The position numbers and the translations under genes are program-made. Below the pieces are notes generated by a model that ran no database searches, had not been told where the DNA came from, and saw only the letters and a list, made by a program, of their open reading frames with translations. This document shows, piece by piece, positions 8,292 to 59,222 of a DNA stretch of 64,000 nucleotides (positions are counted from its first letter, which is position 1; each line of letters starts with the position of its first letter). Origin of the DNA: Candidatus Daviesbacteria bacterium (GTDB lineage Bacteria; Patescibacteriota; Microgenomatia; Daviesbacterales; UBA10151). The stretch spans positions 2,340 through 66,339 of the forward strand of contig JACQIX010000038.1 of the NCBI GenBank assembly GCA_016198275.1. Reading direction: 5' to 3'.

Positions 8292-8585
8292 TCACCAGAT
8301 TAAAGTCTCAAATCTAACTTCTTCAAATCTTGGATTAAATTTGGTGATTAATAATATCTTTTTCTTTCTATTCCAGTTTTTTAGTTGTTTTTCTCTCGCT
8401 ATAGCAGTTTCTGGATCATTAAAAACCTCATAATAAATTAATCTATCTATATTGTATTTCTCAGTATATCCTTTAACCAATTTATTTTTGTGCTCCCATA
8501 ATCTTCTCACCAGATCATTTGTTATTCCTATATAAAAGTTTCCTGATTTATTCCTTAGAATATAAATGTAATATTGTTTACTCAT
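8292..8585 (-). CDS. GIY-YIG nuclease family protein (UPF0213-type)
   Basis: The N-terminus YYIYILRNKSGNFYIGITNDLVRRLWEH and the later REKQLK are GIY-YIG signatures. Confidence 0.85.
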   Translation of the reverse strand: MSKQYYIYILRNKSGNFYIGITNDLVRRLWEHKNKLVKGYTEKYNIDRLIYYEVFNDPETAIAREKQLKNWNRKKKILLITKFNPRFEEVRFETLIW

Positions 8586-11554: not shown

Positions 11555-11580
11555 AATATATAACTATACATTAAACTAAG

Positions 11581-11652
11581 TAGCAGCGGCTGGAATCGGA
11601 CCAGCGGCCTATCGCTTATGAAACGATTGCTCTACCATTGAGCTACGCTGCC
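11581..11652 (-). tRNA. tRNA-Met (or Ile2), anticodon CAU
   Basis: The minus strand reads GGCAGCG-TA-GCTC-AATGGTA-GAGC-A-ATCGT-TTCATAA-GCGAT-AGGCC-GCTGG-TCCGATT-CCAGC-CGCTGCT-A. This is a full cloverleaf, and CCA is not encoded. Confidence 0.85.
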
Positions 11653-13117: not shown

Positions 13118-13783
13118 TTAGCTTAAACACCCCTTTTGGAAGTAAGCAGGTTGTGCTGCCTCAGAATCCCTGGGTTTAAAACTTGGGTCATTAGGATTAA
13201 ATGTTCTAAGGCCTTCAAATCTTCCTTGCAAGTTTCCACTACCATCTCTTGTTATGTAATAAGTATGCATCTCTTTATAAGTAGTCAGACAATCTTCACC
13301 TGGTAATTTAAATCCTAAAGAGATTAAGTATTCTTCTCTGGGACCAAAACGAATAACAGGAAATTTTCTAACTGGACCTGCTTTCTCCAATGTTGGAGCG
13401 CAAAAGATTATACCTGGATTGGTGGATAAAACTTGGTCACGTTCATCGCTAATTAACCTAAATTCAGCGTCTTTTCTCAAAATAGTATCCAATACTAAAC
13501 TACCGCCCTGACGAGCTGGATCAAAAGAGAATTTTACAGCCTCTAAAAATGGATGTTGTAGAAAATCAATTCTTCCATCTGTTAATACACCGTTTGCCTC
13601 TGTTAAATCATAGGGACCTTGATTTGGACCATTACCTATAGATCTTATAGCGACAGTTGGCGTGAGAGAGGGCCGCTCAGGAAGTCTGCCACAAGCAGCC
13701 AGTAATAAAAATACACCAGCTCTGAAGCTAGTTGTAAAAAAATCTCTTCTACTTACTCTTTCCACATTTTCAATATAATACAA
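13118..13783 (-). CDS. Hypothetical exported lipoprotein with a twin-arginine-like signal
   Basis: The N-terminus reads SRRDFFTTSFRAGVFLLLAAC-G, which combines a TAT-like SRRxFF motif with a lipobox. Confidence 0.55.
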   Translation of the reverse strand: MYYIENVERVSRRDFFTTSFRAGVFLLLAACGRLPERPSLTPTVAIRSIGNGPNQGPYDLTEANGVLTDGRIDFLQHPFLEAVKFSFDPARQGGSLVLDTILRKDAEFRLISDERDQVLSTNPGIIFCAPTLEKAGPVRKFPVIRFGPREEYLISLGFKLPGEDCLTTYKEMHTYYITRDGSGNLQGRFEGLRTFNPNDPSFKPRDSEAAQPAYFQKGCLS

Positions 13784-14009
13784 GTGTAGTTTTGCCTTTA
13801 GTTGTTTTAAAATATTCTTCTCTTCTTATGGCATCCTTTTTACTTAAATATGCTTCATAGAAGATTAGCTTAAGTGGCATATAGCCTTTCGTAGATAAAT
13901 TTTCTCCATTATTATGACTTTTAAATCTTTTTCTTAAATCACCTGTGGATCCTACATAAATCCAATCACGGCTTAAACTTTGGAGTACATAAACATAATA
14001 GAATTTCAC
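13770..14009 (-). CDS. GIY-YIG nuclease family protein
   Basis: FYYVYVLQSLSRDWIYVGSTGDLRKRFKSHNNG is the N-terminal signature, and RREEYFK follows later. Confidence 0.8.
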   Translation of the reverse strand: MKFYYVYVLQSLSRDWIYVGSTGDLRKRFKSHNNGENLSTKGYMPLKLIFYEAYLSKKDAIRREEYFKTTKGKTTLVLY

Positions 14010-14788: not shown

Positions 14789-15060
14789 TTGCGGGGGTGG
14801 GAATCGAACCCACTACCTCAAGATTATGCTCCGTTTTGCATTACTGCAAGGGTAGGACTATATCATCATCCTGTTCCGTACGGTACAGGAGTCCGGCGTG
14901 TAGTCTCTACGGGATCCTGAGTATTAATCGAAGGACTTCCCTCGGTATTACCTAGGTATTTAAACATTTAGGTTTCACCGATATAGCCAGATTCTCACAA
15001 AAAATTACTTTCTTGCGGGCCCAAACTGAGCCTTGTGTGCAGCCTTTACACTTCCCCGCG
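14789..15060 (-). tRNA. tRNA(CAU) gene (Met/fMet/Ile2 type) interrupted by a group I intron
   Basis: The 5' exon is 15060..15029 and the 3' exon is 14828..14789. Joined, they give a 72-nt cloverleaf with anticodon loop CUCAUAA, T arm GUGGG-UUCGAUU-CCCAC, and acceptor CGCGGGG/CCCCGCA with a C1xA72 mismatch. Confidence 0.8.
14829..15028 (-). ncRNA. Group I intron (IC3-like, about 200 nt), no ORF
   Basis: It is preceded by U and ends in G (..AAAACGGAG). It contains GGUGAAACCUAAAU and GUAGAGACUACACG, which closely match the core strings of the Azoarcus and Anabaena tRNA introns as I recall them. Exon GGCU can pair with intron GGCC to form P1 with a U.G pair. Confidence 0.75.
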
Positions 15061-15183
15061 AAAAGTATTGTAGCTTTCTTGCTTTTAGTTGTCAATCAAA
15101 CGAATAAATTGTGTTCAGGAGTTGCCAAATCCAAAGTAATTTAACACCATCTATTTATTAGAAAATTTTGGTATAATTAATTA

Positions 15184-15678: not shown

Positions 15679-16053
15679 TCAGTGCCAGAATACCCTTAAC
15701 CAACCTAACCAATTTGGCAGCCTGATTTGAGCTGTCTGGCTTGCTCCCAAAATCATTTTTAATTTTTCCTCCGCAATTACTACCACACTCTCCCCTGTTT
15801 TAGAAAGGCCCAGTTTATTCCTAGCCTGCTCTTCTATAAATTCTACTGATTGAACTTGAAATAATTTTTGCTTTAATTCTTTATTCTTTATCTCCAGCTT
15901 ATAAACTGTTTCTGCTGCCGAGCTTAATCTTTCTCCGGATTTGACAGCTTCCATTATTTGAGCTATCAGATTATAAACTATTACTAAAACAACTAAAATA
16001 ATTAGACCTAAAAAAATTCTTTTAATCATTAAAAATAATTTGCTACTTGACAA
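15679..16053 (-). CDS. ftsB: Septum formation initiator (FtsB/DivIC-like)
   Basis: It has an N-terminal TM segment, then a coiled coil (LEIKNKELKQKL), then EEQARNKLGLSKTGE. Confidence 0.7.
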   Translation of the reverse strand: MSSSKLFLMIKRIFLGLIILVVLVIVYNLIAQIMEAVKSGERLSSAAETVYKLEIKNKELKQKLFQVQSVEFIEEQARNKLGLSKTGESVVVIAEEKLKMILGASQTAQIRLPNWLGWLRVFWH

Positions 16054-16082
16054 AAATACCCTATAACATTAAGCTAAATGTT

Positions 16083-16946
16083 ATGATTTCTTTGCGTGAT
16101 GCTCATCAACAATTTATCGGACACCTTCAAGGCAAATCCCGCTCCTCTGCTACTATCTTAGCGTATGGCAAAGATATTGAGCAACTGGTCAAATTCCTGA
16201 CCGGTTTGAATAAAAATGAGGCTTCTGAAATAATCCTAGGGGACCTACAAGCTTTTATGGAAAAATTAGCCAAAGAGTCTTATACCCCTAAATCAGTCTC
16301 CCGTAAAACCAATTCCACCAAAACCTTTTTTAAATTTTTAAAATCCTCAAATTTAATTCAAAACGATCCTGCGGACAATTTAGAACATCCCAAATTTGAA
16401 AATAAACCTCCTAGAATTTTAACCAAGCTGGAATACCGCTCCTTAAGGGATGCTGCCAGATCAGATATCAGAATGATTGCTGTCATTGAGCTATTTTTGC
16501 AAACAGGAGTCAGAATCGGGGAACTTGCTAAAATTAGCGTAGGGGATGTTAATGTGACCGAAGGAACCATTCACGTTCCCCCGTTTGAAGATACCAGAGA
16601 GAGAATTATCCCGCTAAACAAACCAGCGGCAAACTCCATTGCCAAGTATTTGACTATCAGACCTAAATCCCCTTCCCATACTCTTTTTATTACTAAAACC
16701 GGCAGGCCTTTGTTAATTCGAAATATCCGGACTGCCATTGACAGATATTTTAAAATTGCCGGCATTAAGGGCGCTAAAGTCAATGATTTACGCCATACCT
16801 GGGTAGCCCATCAGTTGCAATCAGGGGTACCTATGACCATTGTTTCCAAGCTGGCAGGCCACAAAAGATTATCCACCACCGAAAGATACCTGCAATTTAT
16901 CCAGGGTCAAACTATAGAAGGTAAAGTTAAACTTGAAGAGCTATAA
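16083..16946 (+). CDS. Tyrosine recombinase XerC/XerD-like
   Basis: The N-terminal SAM-like domain reads LQGKSRSSATILAYGKDIEQ. The catalytic region reads RHTWVAHQLQSG..LAGHKRLSTTERYL. The ATG at 16083 is preferred over 16047, which overlaps ftsB. Confidence 0.8.
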   Translation: MISLRDAHQQFIGHLQGKSRSSATILAYGKDIEQLVKFLTGLNKNEASEIILGDLQAFMEKLAKESYTPKSVSRKTNSTKTFFKFLKSSNLIQNDPADNLEHPKFENKPPRILTKLEYRSLRDAARSDIRMIAVIELFLQTGVRIGELAKISVGDVNVTEGTIHVPPFEDTRERIIPLNKPAANSIAKYLTIRPKSPSHTLFITKTGRPLLIRNIRTAIDRYFKIAGIKGAKVNDLRHTWVAHQLQSGVPMTIVSKLAGHKRLSTTERYLQFIQGQTIEGKVKLEEL

Positions 16947-17021
16947 TGGTGGGCGGACCAGGATTTGAACCTGGAACCAATTGTGTATAAGACAATCGCT
17001 CTACCGTTGAGCTATCCGCCC
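16947..17021 (-). tRNA. tRNA-Ile, anticodon UAU, CCA encoded
   Basis: GGGCGGA-TA-GCTC-AACGGTA-GAGC-G-ATTGT-CTTATAC-ACAAT-TGGTT-CCAGG-TTCAAAT-CCTGG-TCCGCCC-A-CCA. Confidence 0.85.
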
Positions 17022-17036
17022 GTGGGTAGAATTATA

Positions 17037-19379
17037 CTAAAGTCTGGCCCTTGATGCTATCTCCCCCTCCACTTGAACCACATCTCTGCCATATTTTAAG
17101 CGGGATAGTTCTCTGATGGCCTGGCCGATAGCTGGTTTTAACATTGCCTTCCACTTTTTCATATCCTTGGTAGTATCCAAGGAAAACGGCACCACCGGCT
17201 CACCATTGACTATGGTTTTAATATAGGCATGAGGGGATTCAATGTTGACTAGATCCGCCTCTGCAAAGGTTGGTGAAAATTCATGCTGAAGGTAATTAGC
17301 ATCTGTCACTCCTACTCTGAAAGCCAGCACAGTGCCCACATTGCCAAAAACAGCATTTTTTAAATCTTCACCAATTTGGCCGATAAACTGGTTAGCCACA
17401 ATCAGATTTAATCTGTACTTTCTGGCCTCAGATAAAATATCAGCGAAAGTGTCTGTAGCAAAGTTTTGAAACTCATCAACGTATAAGTAAAAATCACGCC
17501 TTTGCTCTATCTGCATGTCTGTCCGAGACATGGCAGCAGCCAAAATTTTGGGGACCAGAATCAGGCCTAAGAAGTTGGAGTTTTCCTCTCCGATCTTTCC
17601 TTTAGACAGGTTCATGATTAAAATTTTCCCTTCATCCATCACTTTGCGAAGATCAAATGATGATTTTGACTGACCAATGATATTTCTTATCATCTTATTG
17701 GTGACAAAACGGCCAAATTTGGAAACCGTGTAATCCAGCACCTCTGATTTATGAAAATCAGTAGTTTGGGCGATTTGATCTGTCCAGTAACGCCGAACAA
17801 CCGGGTCAGCCACTTTTGGCAGTAATTCCCTAACAAAGTTAGCATCAGTCATAATTCTGACTACTTCTACAAAAGTTGCTCCTTCTGAAGACATGGCAGT
17901 CAGCATGGCATTTCTAACTCCATGTTCAAAACGGGGGCCAATAATCCCTGTTTTATTAGGGTCAAATAATTTGTACATCAGCCCGATAATGGAAGCCACC
18001 ACAAAATGTCTCTGCTGTTCGGAATATGCTTCCAACATGTTCAAACCAAAAGGACGAGTCATATCCGAGGGGTCAAAATAAATCACATCTTCGGCCCGGG
18101 ACGGCGGGATGAGTTGCAACATCTCCTCTGCCGCGTCTCCGTGCGGGTCAATAAAACAAAGCCCTTTGCCTGCCAAAACATCTTGTAACATCAAAGTTTT
18201 CAGCAGTTCTGATTTACCGGTGCCTGTCCGGCCGATAATATACATGTGTTTGCGCCTGTCATCTTCTGACAGATAAACCGGCCGACCCACCCCCCTGAAA
18301 ACTGACCTGCCTAAATACAAACCACTGACCGGAATCTTTTCCGGCGCCGGGGCCCGCTTGGATGACAACCAGCTAATGTAGGGTGTTTCAATGGATTTAT
18401 TTGGAAAATGAAACACTGTGGCCAGTTCATCTGCTGTCAAAACCGACAGTTTGGCAAACTTAGGCATATAGCGATAAATAAAATCAGTCAAAAATCCTTT
18501 TTCAGAATAAACTTTATCAGCGCTGAATGAATTGTAGGGCCCGCTAAATTGTTCAAAGGCGGATTTGATATTGGTTAAATGAGCCTTGGCAAGTTCCGAA
18601 GATTCAGATGAAACCACTATTCTAATTACTGTTTCAAAACCGCTTCTGGTAATTTTACCTTCCACTGCTTCCAATTGTTTGGCATCAGGGGCAGGTTTAG
18701 GATTTTTTTCATCCCCGGGTTCTTTTTCTTTTTTCACCCAATTTTTACCCAAGTTTTTCCAGCTGTTATCTGCAGGAGAAATCATCATCTGCACTGCCGC
18801 TCCTTCACTTAACTGCATCTTGGCCAAAGCTGAAGTCAAAGCTGAGAGCGGATCTGTTGGTAAATCCCGGAAAGTTTTAATAGGAAAGTAGTCTGCGCTT
18901 TTCAACTTCAGTTGAGCATAGGCTGTTTGCGAGTTTTCAGAAAAAATATTATATTCCGGCGCTTCTTTAATTTCAGCATCCGGGTAAGCCCCGTGAATTT
19001 GTTTTTCTACTAAATCCTGGTGAGATTGATGGCAGGAAACAAAAAACCTGATAGATTCATGCAAGGCCACAATTTCAAAAGATAAATGAGGTTGGAGCTT
19101 GAAAGCAGATAACATTCCTCCGCTCGAGCGGAGCGAAGCAAAGGTGGCAAATAATTGCTCTGAGGCGTCAATTTTAACTTCATTGCCTCTGGGAACTTTG
19201 ATCTGCAGCAGGACAAATTGCAAAGATTTTTTCTCTCTATCTTTATATTTAATCCAGCCGACAAAAAATTTTTTTAAAAAAAACCCTAGCCCCACCAACA
19301 GTGATAAGACTGCCAAAATTCCCACCACTGCTACTATCAAACTAATAAAATCAATTCCTCCGTTTTGTGTTACTTCCAT
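17037..19379 (-). CDS. Membrane-anchored P-loop ATPase of the TraD/TraG/VirD4 (type IV coupling protein)-like family
   Basis: It has an N-terminal TM segment, Walker A IIGRTGTGKSELL, then CFIDPHGD and Walker B-like FYLYVDEFQNF. Confidence 0.65.
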   Translation of the reverse strand: MEVTQNGGIDFISLIVAVVGILAVLSLLVGLGFFLKKFFVGWIKYKDREKKSLQFVLLQIKVPRGNEVKIDASEQLFATFASLRSSGGMLSAFKLQPHLSFEIVALHESIRFFVSCHQSHQDLVEKQIHGAYPDAEIKEAPEYNIFSENSQTAYAQLKLKSADYFPIKTFRDLPTDPLSALTSALAKMQLSEGAAVQMMISPADNSWKNLGKNWVKKEKEPGDEKNPKPAPDAKQLEAVEGKITRSGFETVIRIVVSSESSELAKAHLTNIKSAFEQFSGPYNSFSADKVYSEKGFLTDFIYRYMPKFAKLSVLTADELATVFHFPNKSIETPYISWLSSKRAPAPEKIPVSGLYLGRSVFRGVGRPVYLSEDDRRKHMYIIGRTGTGKSELLKTLMLQDVLAGKGLCFIDPHGDAAEEMLQLIPPSRAEDVIYFDPSDMTRPFGLNMLEAYSEQQRHFVVASIIGLMYKLFDPNKTGIIGPRFEHGVRNAMLTAMSSEGATFVEVVRIMTDANFVRELLPKVADPVVRRYWTDQIAQTTDFHKSEVLDYTVSKFGRFVTNKMIRNIIGQSKSSFDLRKVMDEGKILIMNLSKGKIGEENSNFLGLILVPKILAAAMSRTDMQIEQRRDFYLYVDEFQNFATDTFADILSEARKYRLNLIVANQFIGQIGEDLKNAVFGNVGTVLAFRVGVTDANYLQHEFSPTFAEADLVNIESPHAYIKTIVNGEPVVPFSLDTTKDMKKWKAMLKPAIGQAIRELSRLKYGRDVVQVEGEIASRARL

Positions 19380-53368: not shown

Positions 53369-53548
53369 ATGAAAAAAGGGTTAGTAACTGTTAAAAAGGC
53401 AGCAGAAATAATGGGAGTTAGTGTTCAAACTGTTATTAGATGGGATAAAAAGGGGAAATTAAAAGCTACAAGGCACCCAATGAATAATTATCGTTTATAT
53501 AGATTAGTTGATCTTCAAACCATTGCAAAGAAAGTAGGAGAAGAATGA
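53369..53548 (+). CDS. Excisionase/MerR-type HTH DNA-binding protein
   Basis: VTVKKAAEIMGVSVQTVIRWDKKGKLKATR is the motif. Its stop overlaps the recombinase start by 4 nt. Confidence 0.65.
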   Translation: MKKGLVTVKKAAEIMGVSVQTVIRWDKKGKLKATRHPMNNYRLYRLVDLQTIAKKVGEE

Positions 53549-55125
53549 ACGATATTACAGTTCTAACTTATGAGAGGGTTTCAACAGAAGATCAAACAGT
53601 CACTAAATCTTGTGATGACCAGAAAACTGTTAATGATAGGTTTATTGCTTCTCAAGGCTGGAAAGTGGCAGAAAACGGTGATTATAGGGATGAGGGTATA
53701 TCTGGTTCAACTATAGATAGACCAGGAGTACAAGACATACTAATAAGATGTGGTGAGGACAAAACCATTAAAGCTATCGTTGTAACTGAATCAGATAGAA
53801 TAGCCAGAGGTAATTTAGCATATTTATTCATCAGAGAGGCACTTAAAAAGTATGGAGTAAAGATTGTGGCTGTCACCCAACCAATGATTGATGATAGTGA
53901 TGAAGGTGAAATGATTGGTGAGATTATGGGTGCTGTTAATGGGTTCTTAGGAAAAATAACTAGGCGTAAATCTATGAGAGCCCTAGATGAGAAAGCAGCT
54001 AGAGGTTGGTGGCCTGGGAAAGCCCCCATAGGCTACAAAAACGTCAATATTGGTACAGAAGAGAAGCCTGATAGGATTATTGAAGTTGATGAAGATTTTG
54101 CTCCTTACGTTCGCCAAATTCCCTCTTGGTATAATCAGGGCTATTCCTACCAAGATATTGCTGACAAACTTCATGGACAAGGATTAATAGGAAAGTTAAA
54201 TGGGAAGGTATCTCCTGAAGAGGTTAGAAAGATTATTTTCAATGATTTTTATTTAGGGGAGTTTTTGTGGAGAGGTAAAAAATATAAGGCAAATCATCCC
54301 CCACTCTTGAGATACTTAGAAGTCCATAAAGCACGTAGTAGATCCAAAGAAAAAGGACATACTCATAGCACAAAAGAATTAAAAGACAAATTTCCTTATA
54401 AGAAACTAGATTTTTATTGCTTTGATTGCAAGGACTTAAGAATTACAGCAGAATCTAAAACTAAACACTACCCACGTACTAATAGAACTGTTGAATATAC
54501 CTTTTATCACTGTACTAAATCTAAAGGTGGGTGGTCTAAGTGCACTCAGCCTAGTATTAATAAGGAAGATCTCATTGTACAACTGGCACAAAAAGTAGTA
54601 CTTCCAATCGAGGTTGACGAAGAATTGGCTGAATTTATATTTGAAGAAATGAACAATCAATATACTCATAATAAGGAGGAACAGGCGCAATTCTCACATT
54701 CGATTAATAGACGTTTGGGACAAATAGATATAGAGCTTCAAAATCTTATGGAAATGCGTATAGCAGGTAAAATCCTGCCAATTGGCAATAAAACCCCTGA
54801 TGAAGTTTATGAAGAATATGTAGGCAAAAAGGAATTTGAAAGAAAAAACTTATTATCTACTAAGTTAAAACTGGAAAATAATAGTCTTGAATGGCGTAAA
54901 AAAGCTTCGAACTTCCTTACGGATTGTCAGGATGCCACAAACAAATTTCTAAAAGCTGAGGATGAGAAAAAAGTTAAATTTTTAAGGCGTATAACTTCGA
55001 ACCTATTTTTAAACAACAAAGAGCTTGTTGTGACGCACCAATTTCCCTTTAGCTACCTCCTAAAAGAAGGCAGCCATCCTTCTGTGCTCCCCCGCGTGGA
55101 TTCGAACCACGAACCTCGATCTTAA
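53545..55125 (+). CDS. Large serine recombinase
   Basis: The N-terminal resolvase domain reads LTYERVSTEDQ with the catalytic Ser. A recombinase domain, a Cys-rich zinc ribbon (CFDC..CTKSKGGWSKC) and a coiled coil follow. The last 13 codons are read off the antisense of tRNA-Asn. Confidence 0.85.
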   Translation: MNDITVLTYERVSTEDQTVTKSCDDQKTVNDRFIASQGWKVAENGDYRDEGISGSTIDRPGVQDILIRCGEDKTIKAIVVTESDRIARGNLAYLFIREALKKYGVKIVAVTQPMIDDSDEGEMIGEIMGAVNGFLGKITRRKSMRALDEKAARGWWPGKAPIGYKNVNIGTEEKPDRIIEVDEDFAPYVRQIPSWYNQGYSYQDIADKLHGQGLIGKLNGKVSPEEVRKIIFNDFYLGEFLWRGKKYKANHPPLLRYLEVHKARSRSKEKGHTHSTKELKDKFPYKKLDFYCFDCKDLRITAESKTKHYPRTNRTVEYTFYHCTKSKGGWSKCTQPSINKEDLIVQLAQKVVLPIEVDEELAEFIFEEMNNQYTHNKEEQAQFSHSINRRLGQIDIELQNLMEMRIAGKILPIGNKTPDEVYEEYVGKKEFERKNLLSTKLKLENNSLEWRKKASNFLTDCQDATNKFLKAEDEKKVKFLRRITSNLFLNNKELVVTHQFPFSYLLKEGSHPSVLPRVDSNHEPRS

Positions 55126-55158
55126 CAGGATCTCGCTCTACCGTTGAGCTACAGGGGA
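55087..55158 (-). tRNA. tRNA-Asn, anticodon GUU
   Basis: TCCCCTG-TA-GCTC-AACGGTA-GAGC-G-AGATC-CTGTTAA-GATCG-AGGTT-CGTGG-TTCGAAT-CCACG-CGGGGGA-G. Confidence 0.85.
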
Positions 55159-55404
55159 ATGTATTAAGTTTTTAATGAACTGACGACCTCGATAACTTTT
55201 TAACTGCCTCTCTCTTATTAGAGCTGCTTGCCTAGTTTCGCACTCTTCTTTGTAAAGAAATACCCACTCTCCATCAAACTTAGCAGTATAACTATTCCTA
55301 AATTCCTTATCGTTGTGCAATTTAATCCTCTGATCCAAATTATCAGTTTGACCTATGTAGATTTTACAATGCTTCTTGTTATAAATACTATAAACATAAA
55401 ACAT
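55138..55404 (-). CDS. GIY-YIG nuclease family protein
   Basis: MFYVYSIYNKKHCKIYIGQTDNLDQRIKLHN is the N-terminal signature. The start is Met19 of the tracked ORF. Its last codons overlap the 5' end of tRNA-Asn. Confidence 0.8.
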   Translation of the reverse strand: MFYVYSIYNKKHCKIYIGQTDNLDQRIKLHNDKEFRNSYTAKFDGEWVFLYKEECETRQAALIRERQLKSYRGRQFIKNLIHSPVAQR

Positions 55405-55413
55405 ATTTAATCC

Positions 55414-56368: not shown

Positions 56369-57447
56369 TCCCTTAGTTTCTTGGCCCTGGTTGGGTGTTT
56401 TAGCTTTCTGATGGCTTTGGCTTCAATTTGCCTGATTCGCTCGCGTGTGACCCCAAACTCTTTGCCTACTTCCTCCAATGTCCTTTGTTTTCCATCTTCC
56501 AACCCAAACCTAAGTTGTAACACTCTTTTTTCCCTGGGAGATAACGAGTCTAAAACTTCATCCAAATGAATTTTTAAAAGTTCCCTGGTGGCTTGTTCAT
56601 CCGGCTGCAAGCCCTGATCAGCAATAAAATCCCCCAAATGTGAATCTTCCTCGTCCCCCACCGGAGTTTCCAAGGAGGTGGGCTCTTGTGAAACTTTTAT
56701 AATTTCTCTGGCTTTGCTTTCGTCAATACCAGAAGCCCTAGCTACTTCCTCAGGTAAAGGTTCCCTGCCCAACTCTTGCATTAGCCTACGTTGAGTTCGG
56801 TTAAAACGGTTGATGGTTTCCACCATATGAACCGGAATTCTGATGGTTCTGGCCTGATCCGCAATTGCCCGGGTGATAGCCTGACGGATCCACCAAGTGG
56901 CATAAGTGGAAAATTTGTAGCCTCTTCTCCAGTCATATTTATCAACCGCCCTCATCAGCCCAATATTCCCTTCCTCTATTAAATCCAGCAAGCTCATCCC
57001 CCTACCAACATATTTTTTAGCAATGGAAACAACCAATCTTAAATTAGCTGAAATTAACTTATCGCGGGCAATTTTGACATTTTTCTCTGCTTTTTTGGCC
57101 AGTTCAATCTCATCAGCAGCTGTTAAAAGCGGAATTTTACCAATATCCCGAAGATACTGCCTGACAGGATCTGTCACAGACCCTTCTTCCAAGGTAGATA
57201 AAACCTCCAGTTCCTTTTCCAACTCGGTGGCACTTTTGTTATCAGCTTCTAATTCTTCTGCTGTTGTTTCAAAAACATCAATATTATCCTTGATTAGCTT
57301 AATATAAAAAAGGTCTAGCTGTTCAATTGTTTCCTCTGGTTTTGGGAAAACTTGCAAAATCTCTTCCTGAGTAATAAAACCCCTCTCTTTACCGAGTTTA
57401 AGCAACTTTTTAATATCTAATGGTGTTTCTTTATTTTTTTTAGCCAT
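56356..57447 (-). CDS. rpoD: RNA polymerase sigma factor RpoD (sigma-70)
   Basis: Region 2 reads [27 protein letters not shown]. Region 4 reads [27 protein letters not shown]. Confidence 0.9.
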
Positions 57448-59222
57448 TATAAATTCTTCAGTTTCACTGACAAATCTCTAAATCTTTTGTTTAACCCTTC
57501 CAATATTTCCATTTTACCAAATTCTTGGGCATTCTTAATCTCCAAAGATAATTTTTCCAAAGATGCTTTGATTAAAGCTTTTTTCAATTCAGCAACTACT
57601 CCCATTACTTCCTTTTGCCAATTTTTTTGTTCACTAAGTTTACTGTCAAGCTCAGTTAAATATAACCTGTCTACATCCAAAAGTAATTCTTTAGGCAAGT
57701 CGGCGCTAAATTCATTAATATTAAAAGCTCTGCTTTTAAAAGAGATCGAATCTAAATAAAGTACCAAATAAACAAACAGTTGCCGCCATTTTTCTTCAAA
57801 AAATAGAGTTTCAGGAAAAGGAGGAACAAAAATTGAATCCTTTGGAGATTGTAGTAATAGTGCCATTAAATACTCCTCTAAAAGTTGTCGCCGGGACTTA
57901 AGGGCAACAATATTATCTGCCCCTGTTTTTTGTCTGAAAACTTGAGCATAACTCTTTTGGCTATTTTTTTGCTCTTTGATGATAGCCTCTCTTAAAATCC
58001 CCTCTTCGGTTTTCAAAAATGCTGCCAGCTTTTGTACATACCTTTCTCTAACTAAATTATCAGTTATTTTTGCCCAAATAGGTATTAACTCCGCTCCAAT
58101 TTTTTTTAAATCAGCAGCTTTTTTAATATCAAAACGTGAAGCTGTAGATGCTAAATAATAATCATAAATTGGGATAGAGCCTTCAATTGCCCTCTGCCAA
58201 AGCTTGGGATTTTCCCCAACTGCTTCAGCTGTATCTTTTCCACCCTCGATTTGGATAACCTCAATGTTGAAACCAAACTGGTCCGCCATTTCAATTCCTC
58301 TTCTGGAAGCGCTGTCTCCTGCCAAATCCATATCAAAACAAAGCTTTAGATTTTCCGTATATTTTTTTAAAAGTTCTATTTGGCCTGAAGTTAATCCAGT
58401 ACCTTTGGTGGCAACCACATTTTTAACTCCTGCTTGGTGAGATAGTATCACATCCATTTCTCCTTCCACCAGAATAACTTCTTTTTTCTGTCTGATTTCA
58501 GTTTTGGCCAAATTAATTCCATATAAAAAATTCCCTTTATCAAAAATCGGCGTTTGAGGGGTGTTAATATATTTTGGTTCACTGGCATATAAAACCCGGC
58601 CGGAAAAACCCCTTAGTTTATCTTTTCCGTCAATTAAAGGGAAAATAATTCTCCCCCTGAAACGGTCATATGCTCCCTCTCTTGCAGGCACCCCTAAACC
58701 GGAGGTGATAATTTCAGAAATAGTAAATCCTCTTTTAAGTAAAAATTTAGTCAAAGATTCCCAGGAATTAGGGGCATACCCTAAACCAAACTCTTCTAAA
58801 GAAAAATCGCTGATGCCTCTTTGTCGCAGATACGTATAAGCTGTTTTGCCTAAAGGGTATTTGGTTAAAATATAGTGGAAAAATTCTTGAGCTTTTAAAT
58901 TAATTTCAAATAGTCTGTCTTTAAAATCTTTTTTATCAGGCATTTTTTTCAAAGACACTCCTGCTTTTTTAGCTAATATTTCCAGCGCTTCCTTAAATTC
59001 CATTCCTTCTTTTTCCATTAAAAAGGTAAAATGGTCCCCGCCCTTCTGGCAGCCAAAACAATGCCAGATTTGACGTTCAGGTGAGACTACAAATGAGGGG
59101 GTTTTTTCATTATGAAAAGGACAATTGGCTTTAAAATTTATACCGGACTTTTTCAAAGTGAGATATTCGCTTATTAAATCAACAATATTAATTTTCTCTT
59201 TAATTAAGTCTGTATCATCCAT
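57447..59222 (-). CDS. dnaG: DNA primase
   Basis: The CHC2 zinc finger reads [25 protein letters not shown]. The TOPRIM region reads [10 protein letters not shown]. Confidence 0.9.

Follow-up and report, generated by a model that had tools for sequence, protein, structure and literature searches.

Evidence that a group I intron splits the anticodon loop of an initiator-type tRNA(CAU) gene from Candidatus Daviesbacteria

We analyzed a 64-kb stretch of genomic DNA (here called the window) from Candidatus Daviesbacteria (Microgenomatia, Patescibacteria), in which a tRNA(CAU) gene on the minus strand had been predicted, from its letters alone, to carry a group I intron. Our analysis makes it highly probable that a 200-nt group I intron splits the anticodon loop of this initiator-type tRNA(CAU) between U33 and C34, that exons and intron belong to one transcription unit, and that the ribozyme holds no open reading frame (ORF). 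The intron is not new in kind: this pairing of intron and tRNA is known from earlier work on Microgenomatia.

The split gene and the fold of its insert

The minus strand reads CGCGGGGAAGTGTAAAGGCTGCACACAAGGCT at 15060..15029 (5′ exon) and CATAATCTTGAGGTAGTGGGTTCGATTCCCACCCCCGCAA at 14828..14789 (3′ exon). These letters agree exactly with the exon readings of the original prediction, and the joined exons give the 72-nt tRNA that it had described, which ARAGORN calls tRNA-Met(cat). At the genomic locus, intron-aware ARAGORN with relaxed thresholds (-ps) reported tRNA-Met(cat) i(33,200). With default thresholds, ARAGORN missed the split gene in the window whether or not -i was set, so the intron-aware tRNA search that had been suggested as a check gave a positive answer with relaxed -ps only. 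For annotation, this means that default tRNA finders miss the gene and the genome would seem to have no initiator tRNA; tRNA-based completeness estimates would therefore be distorted for such genomes. The CCA end of the split tRNA is not encoded.

The 200-nt insert (14829..15028) holds GGTGAAACCTAAAT and GTAGAGACTACACG. The Rfam Intron_gpI model (RF00028; gathering score, 50 bits) matched 14834..15038 of the minus strand over its full length with 80.6 bits (E = 6.9e-19), which is the highest-scoring RNA match of the window and far beyond chance. The covariance-model check proposed beforehand was thus significant and above the gathering score, and together with the ARAGORN call it bore out the predicted interruption of the anticodon loop by a group I intron. 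Three cut positions are possible, and all yield one identical spliced product, because the intron and the 3′ exon each start with CA. Only the junction CU/...G/CAUAA, between positions 33 and 34, combines U(-1) with a terminal G, and this is the single junction that had been singled out.

A P1-P9 model was drawn by hand, guided by the Rfam alignment, and projected onto an alignment of 86 homologs. All 58 model pairs are canonical in the window, and the hand-drawn model of the window intron contains no P2.1, P5abc, or P7.1/7.2. Across the 86 homologs, 86.5% of cells were paired, compared with 73.2% in shuffles (0 of 500 reached the observed value), and pairing dropped to 35 to 49% when the 3′ partners were slid by 1 to 3 columns. 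Changes on both sides occurred in 34 of the 58 pairs, with covariation in P2, P3, P5, P6, P8, and P9. A P3-P9 fold, whose absence would have spoken against the original prediction, can therefore be drawn with canonical pairs throughout and with covariation across the homologs. P1, too, forms as foreseen between exon GGCU and the intron (G8-C11) with a U.G wobble, which was found in 85 of 85 relatives; in these 85 distinct relatives, the U was fixed by the parser and the invariant G8 was not. No endonuclease ORF lies inside the intron, the 200 nt being filled by ribozyme helices. The GNRA loops on P2 and P9 may, to judge from the model, make tertiary contacts. Coordinates of all features are collected in Table 1.

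Table 1. Features of the split tRNA gene and its intron, in the order of transcription (pair positions in intron numbering)
Feature	Coordinates	Strand	Basis and remarks
Sigma-70-type promoter, TTGACA-17 nt-TACAAT (putative)	15067..15095	-	11/12 consensus matches; ends 6 nt before tRNA position 1; function presumed from consensus
5′ exon, tRNA positions 1-33: acceptor CGCGGGG, A8 A9, D arm GUGU/AAAGGCU/GCAC, anticodon stem CAAGG, C32 U33	15029..15060	-	Sequence, ARAGORN
Group I intron, 200 nt, no room for ORF	14829..15028	-	Rfam 80.6 bits, structure, covariation
P1: exon G(-4)G C U(-1) with intron G8 G9 C10 C11, 7-nt loop; U(-1).G8 = 5′ splice site	15018..15032	-	U.G 85/85, C-G 85/85
P10 (predicted): loop bases U6 G7 with 3′ exon C+1 A+2	within P1 loop	-	Read from sequence
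P2: 12-20/25-33, 9 bp, GUAA tetraloop	14996..15017	-	Both-side changes in all 9 pairs
P3 5′ strand, 38-43	14986..14991	-	P3 100% paired; 3/6 pairs compensatory
P4-P5-P6 domain, 48-118: P4 48-53/82-87; J4/5 AAA; P5 57-60/75-78; J5/4 UAA; P6 88-97/111-118	14911..14981	-	P4 99.8% paired; compensatory changes in P5 and P6
P7 5′ strand: G122, bulged A123, G124-A128; presumed guanosine-binding pair G124-C173	14901..14907	-	Strand invariant, partly via search pattern
P3 3′ strand, 132-137; closes P3/P7 pseudoknot	14892..14897	-	Covariation
P8 hairpin, 139-160 (139-147/152-160)	14869..14890	-	Both-side changes in 7/8 pairs
J8/7 (UGAUGAUA), then P7 3′ strand UAGUCC, 161-174 (P7 partner U169-C174)	14855..14868	-	Rfam, model, covariation
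P9.0 (C178 C179 with G197 G198) around P9 (180-184/189-193, 5 bp, GUAA tetraloop)	14831..14851	-	P9 97.9% paired, 5/5 pairs compensatory
Terminal guanosine omega G200, 3′ splice site	14829..14829	-	Read from sequence
3′ exon, positions 34-73: anticodon CAU, A37 A38, stem UCUUG, variable loop AGGUA, T arm GUGGG/UUCGAUU/CCCAC, acceptor CCCCGCA, discriminator A	14789..14828	-	Read from sequence

Proposed splicing and the identity of the tRNA

Transcription would begin at the consensus promoter a few bases upstream of the tRNA, and the intron would fold to its P1-P9 core. The internal guide G8-C11 would then pair with exon GGCU to form P1 and so present the U(-1).G8 wobble, and a free guanosine in P7 (G124-C173) would attack the bond after U33. 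Next, the terminal G200 would take the place of the guanosine in the same site, and the 3′-OH of U33 would attack the bond after G200, with the 2-bp P10 (C34-A35 with U6-G7) aligning the exons. The expected products are a 72-nt tRNA with the loop CUCAUAA and the freed intron. Among related introns, precise self-splicing in vitro is reported for a Microgenomatia tRNA-Asp intron and a Patescibacteria tRNA-Asn intron (Nakagawa et al. 2026, mSystems, PMC13011429). Our picture leaves knowledge of how such introns work unchanged.

Several points weigh against a functional group I intron at this site. P1 and P10 are short in the window, at 4 and 2 bp; A91-U115 and U94-A114, the distal pairs of P6, show poor conservation; and P9.0 is weakly supported (its pairs form at 40% and 85%), the first pair being poorly conserved. 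Part of the invariance is built in: the search patterns or the parser prescribed CAUAA, the terminal G, U(-1), P7, and some portions of P3 and P4. Finally, it is from family membership that we infer self-splicing by standard group I chemistry. The short P1 and P10, together with this indirect case for splicing at the window locus, could be read to mean that the intron has decayed and lost its ability to splice, leaving the split tRNA gene as a pseudogene. We regard such decay as very improbable: all core helices are intact in the window, the family evolves by compensatory changes, the consensus promoter is kept, relatives show the same order of genes at the locus, and the window holds no second initiator-type tRNA. 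The intron is probably inherited vertically, since it is without an endonuclease gene; its imprecise loss would destroy the anticodon.

The split tRNA is likely an initiator. Position 1:72 is C1xA72, in an acceptor stem that is otherwise the canonical one of initiators (CGCGGGG/CCCCGCA). At 11580..11652, 3 kb from the split gene, there is another tRNA-Met(CAU), which is elongator-type and has G1.U72 and C11:G24. The window also contains a tRNA-Ile(UAU) at 16947..17021 (minus strand), which covers AUA, so that an Ile2(CAU) tRNA is not needed. Other features argue in the opposite direction. The D stem has U11:A24 and not the initiator A11:U24, only one of the three initiator G:C pairs is present (G30-C40, with A29-U41 and G31.U39 at the other positions), many relatives have a U1:A72 pair, and homologs have been labeled "Met" and not "fMet" (Nakagawa et al., PMC13011429). 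Our tRNA survey, moreover, covered 64 kb of the genome, and a second initiator gene may lie elsewhere. U39 is found as well in two of the loci described below (L075 and L097) and in most other members of their family (type A). With C1xA72 present and two of the three anticodon-stem G:C pairs missing, the original prediction had been right to be cautious about tRNA identity.

The lack of A11:U24 and of two anticodon-stem G:C pairs, the U1:A72 of many relatives, and the assignment of published homologs to Met(CAT) by tFind and tRNAscan-type models would all suit an interrupted elongator tRNA-Met or a tRNA-Ile2 with a lysidine-modified CAU anticodon. We find this unlikely, although it is the strongest of the competing interpretations. 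Neither identity sits well with C1xA72 and an acceptor stem of canonical initiator sequence, which recurs in the other split and unsplit Patescibacteria initiator tRNAs that we recovered; a normal elongator-type tRNA-Met(CAU) is encoded only 3 kb away, and the tRNA-Ile(UAU) makes Ile2(CAU) superfluous. Reading of AUA by a UAU anticodon, without a lysidine-modified CAU tRNA, is itself uncommon in bacteria and bears on the number of CAU tRNAs needed. The host tRNA family is unusual in other respects, too. The window tRNA has A8 A9 in place of U8, and many type A relatives (L132-L250) have 6-nt D loops and T loops such as GCGCAAC or GUGCGAC, not UUCRANY; on sequence grounds, these odd D and T loops suggest a non-standard D-loop/T-loop elbow.

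Relatives, distribution, and lineage of the intron

Two Microgenomatia genomes with Met(CAU) introns at 33/34 are listed in a survey of 95 complete Patescibacteria genomes (Nakagawa et al. 2026, PMC13011429, Tables 1 and S3), which also gives ~40% as the share of Patescibacteria genomes that carry group I introns (Nakagawa et al. 2026, PMC13011429). With the same host and site already published, the expectation that such an intron would be noteworthy in a streamlined genome is not supported. The Met introns of GCA_001029755.1 and GCA_013426185.1 come from the same bacterial class as the window intron and interrupt the same odd tRNA (GUGU..GCAC D arm, U39) at the same 33/34 site. All three have in common the core strings GGCUAUAUCGG, AAUACCGAGGGAAG, and CGUAGAGACUAYACGCC, and the two published introns resemble that of the window in their length (190 to 216 nt) and in having no ORF. 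They are ~58 to 64% identical to it on core columns, differ from it by compensatory changes in P2, P5, P6, P8, and P9, and reside in tRNAs that start with U1 (U1:A72), whereas the window tRNA has C1xA72. Intron-less alleles of the same tRNA, with 94 to 97% identity, are present in other complete Microgenomatia genomes, and the distribution is therefore sporadic.

A genome collection was scanned with a pattern (ATAGTC..GGTTCRAWTCCNNNCCCCGCA) in which the P7 3′ strand is tied to the 3′ half of an initiator-type tRNA. Loci and contigs from the scans carry L numbers, and counts are given for the matches listed, among which the window's own genome is absent. At least 45 split initiator-type tRNA genes were found besides that of the window, all with U(-1) and a terminal G; a further 58 matches were false positives (uninterrupted initiator tRNAs with ATAGTC just upstream), and 23 loci fell into neither group. 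The metagenome-assembled genomes with split genes are nearly all titled Patescibacteria or simply bacteria; the exceptions are L116 (Elusimicrobia) and L075 (Gammaproteobacteria). With the window counted, 20 insertions lie at 33/34 and 26 at 36/37.

Two families occupy the 33/34 site. Type A consists of the window, L075, L097, and the two published Microgenomatia genomes, and the window belongs to it by core strings, host tRNA, insertion site, and taxon. Type B comprises 16 loci from Saccharibacteria, Kaiserbacteria, and Paceibacterota (L008, L040, L045, L058, L061, L062, L069, L070, L074, L079, L089, L094, L108, L116, L119, and L124), whose cores match the cyanobacterial IC3 fMet intron; these introns cluster with cyanobacterial IC3 fMet introns and score 51 to 75 bits with Rfam (three tested). 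As IC3-type introns, they are at odds with the published statement, drawn from the 95 complete genomes, that no Patescibacteria tRNA intron belongs to IC (PMC13011429). In Patescibacteria, the 33/34 site of CAU tRNAs has been taken by group I introns of at least two apparently unrelated lineages, the IC3 type and type A. The 26 introns at 36/37 (CUCAU/...g/AA; L006, L011, L013, L015, L018, L022, and L029 among them) form a cluster of their own, and four of five tested scored 58 to 81 bits with Rfam, L018 falling below threshold.

A type A-specific pattern was found on at least 120 metagenome contigs. At least 85 of the 124 loci from the type A and viral scans have a member of the same tRNA family that is interrupted at CU/CAUAA by an intron of 180 to 233 nt. 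ARAGORN called many of these relatives Leu(caa) i35, a type of mis-call that has been described before (Nakagawa et al., PMC13011429). Among the matches listed, the introns closest to that of the window are ~73 to 75% identical to it (L075, L142, and L226), so that the window adds one fairly divergent member (at most ~75% identity) to a family documented in Microgenomatia. About 35 other type A cores among the matches listed lie outside split tRNAs; Rfam placed a sample of them in 16S (L153 and L189) and 23S (L163, L187, and L198) rRNA genes, and these rRNA introns share the type A lineage. Up to four group I matches per 23S gene were seen among the rRNA loci with type A cores, and type A core strings also occur on four IMG/VR contigs (L252-L255). 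L075 (CAZWTE010000064.1), a contig of 5.7 kb that bears the title "uncultured Gammaproteobacteria," carries the closest intron among the matches listed, at 75%. The contig shows the gene order of the window (GlmU-like gene, tRNA, Nramp, split tRNA) with 64 to 71% amino-acid identity; it is probably mis-binned.

The original prediction had called the intron "IC3-like." Pairwise nhmmer comparisons gave 44.6 and 31.5 bits with the published Microgenomatia Met introns, 16 to 30 bits with other Patescibacteria tRNA introns, and 28.6 bits with an intron labeled IA3 in Nakagawa Table S5. Introns labeled IC3 gave 4 to 15 bits, and the cyanobacterial fMet introns, which share the site, gave 4 to 11. 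When the window was scored against profiles, the published Microgenomatia Met introns reached 64.3 bits, other Patescibacteria tRNA introns 62.7, type B 53.5, labeled IC3 18.5, and labeled IA1/IA2 12.6. A verdict of "not IC3" from profile HMM scores alone was not upheld, given the 53.5 bits of the type B profile, and clustering on core columns was therefore added. Neighbor-joining on 177 shared core columns, without bootstrap, separated IC3-labeled introns together with type B, IA1/IA2, the 36/37 introns, and type A including the window, whose nearest labeled neighbor in the type A group of this tree is the IA3-labeled intron.

Common ancestry with the cyanobacterial tRNA-fMet intron within the IC3 lineage would account for the shared 33/34 insertion in a CAU tRNA, the compact P1-P9 form with GNRA loops on P2 and P9, common core strings such as GUAGAGACUA, and the 53.5 bits of the type B profile, which represents IC3-type fMet introns of Patescibacteria. 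We nevertheless judge it improbable. The 4 to 15 bits to labeled IC3 introns compare with 29 to 45 bits to the IA3-labeled and Microgenomatia introns, the labeled IC3 profile stays at 18.5 bits when Patescibacteria profiles reach 63 to 64, the tree sets the window outside the clade of IC3 and type B, and J3/4, P6, and P9.0 do not follow the IC3 fMet pattern. The published classification likewise assigned no Patescibacteria tRNA intron of its survey set, the two closest homologs included, to IC (Nakagawa et al. 2026, PMC13011429). What survives of the IC3 label, as far as sequence comparison can tell, is therefore a likeness of compact architecture (P1-P9 with GNRA loops on P2 and P9) and not of lineage.

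Four classical classes of bacterial tRNA group I introns have been distinguished, and the junction of the fMet.2Ug class, CU/intron..g/CAUAA, is that of the window (Williams 2020, bioRxiv 10.1101/2020.01.27.920355). The window agrees with this class in its site (U33/C34) and in its host, a CAU tRNA whose acceptor is initiator-type, and probably not in the IC3 lineage, because it clusters apart from labeled IC3 fMet introns. Like the window intron, the cyanobacterial tRNA-fMet intron (fMet.2Ug, IC3) lies at U33/C34 of an initiator-type CAU tRNA, with U(-1) and a terminal G, and both presumably use the same two-step self-splicing chemistry. The cyanobacterial intron falls in a separate clade (4 to 11 bits pairwise), is longer (244 to 267 nt, versus 200 nt), and has a 5-bp P9.0 (ACCAC/GUGGU); a PD-(D/E)XK endonuclease ORF is present in some of its copies, whereas the window intron has none. 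It was reportedly first described by Biniszkiewicz et al. in 1994. The Azoarcus tRNA-Ile2(CAU) intron, compared here by description, is likewise a minimal ribozyme of ~200 nt in a CAU tRNA, with P1-P9 only and tetraloops on P2 and P9, but it belongs to the IC3 lineage and sits at 36/37, after CAU, of a different host tRNA.

Within the phylum, the Patescibacteria tRNA-Asp and tRNA-Asn introns are, like that of the window, compact and without an ORF, and they occupy other sites and host tRNAs. The Microgenomatia tRNA-Asp intron is moderately close to the window intron (26.9 bits), and the tRNA-Asn type is distinguished by additional helices between P3 and P8, which are absent from the window intron. 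The type A core strings seen in the window also occur in introns of Patescibacteria rRNA genes, several per gene. LAGLIDADG endonucleases are frequent in the published rRNA introns of the phylum (Nakagawa et al. 2026, PMC13011429), and the window intron has none.

One could go further and propose that a single Patescibacteria-specific type A lineage colonized rRNA genes as well as an atypical initiator's anticodon loop, invaded 33/34 independently of the cyanobacterial IC3 intron, and was retained as useful, for example by gating or chaperoning maturation of the sole initiator tRNA and coupling initiation to GTP or Mg status. The atypical traits of the host tRNA that enter into this scenario are A8, U11:A24, one of three G:C pairs, and the non-canonical T loops of relatives. 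We think it a long shot as a whole.

Neighboring genes and elements

A 79-amino-acid (aa) GIY-YIG ORF (PF01541) lies at 13770..14009 (minus strand), downstream of the split tRNA and on the same strand, and a GIY-YIG ORF is found 190 to 250 nt past the intron core in 8 of the 65 type A loci with enough flank. This arrangement might mean that the ORF-less intron is mobilized in trans by the downstream nuclease, as in phage pairs of a free-standing endonuclease and an intron. We consider trans mobilization most improbable and rejected the GIY-YIG protein as a homing partner in our preferred account, because paralogs and homologs also adjoin uninterrupted tRNA genes. Three paralogs of ~79 aa are encoded in the 64 kb, the other two at about 8349..8579 and about 55183..55410 (both minus strand), and one of the three lies 25 nt from an uninterrupted tRNA-Asn (55086..55158); a homolog at L099:371-604 adjoins an uninterrupted initiator tRNA. 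The 79-aa protein has no DNA-binding domain, and most type A loci have no GIY-YIG ORF. GIY-YIG ORFs seem to track tRNA genes in general and not the intron. Loci with listed homologs are L099, L134, L155, L217, L218, and L249.

As to other window genes, the DnaG primase (57447..59222; 591 aa) is 100% identical to an NCBI protein from a Candidatus Daviesbacteria bacterium, and its close homologs with a named source are all from Daviesbacteria or Microgenomates, which places the window in Microgenomatia. The window's DnaG shows no intein or LAGLIDADG match, and some Daviesbacteria DnaG primases of ~985 aa have intein and LAGLIDADG Pfam matches (P0050, P0058, P0072, and P0088). The gene order at the split tRNA is common to several metagenome contigs with the same split tRNA and includes DivIC, an Xer-type recombinase, a TraG-like ATPase, a GlmU-like gene, a second tRNA, and Nramp. 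Five Logan contigs with the downstream 193-aa gene (L001-L005) all start at window position 14812, in the T arm of the 3′ exon. Variation in intron presence was rejected as the cause of these starts, because the break falls in a conserved T-arm motif, a branch point of the k-mer graph; the shared start most likely stems from branching of the assembly graph at a conserved tRNA motif and not from biology. Elsewhere in the window, an Xer-type recombinase and a TraG/VirD4-like ATPase flank the tRNA-Ile(UAU) (16047..19379), and a large serine recombinase abuts the tRNA-Asn (53545..55125). Both regions may be elements integrated at tRNA genes, yet the Xer/TraG arrangement is kept in relatives.

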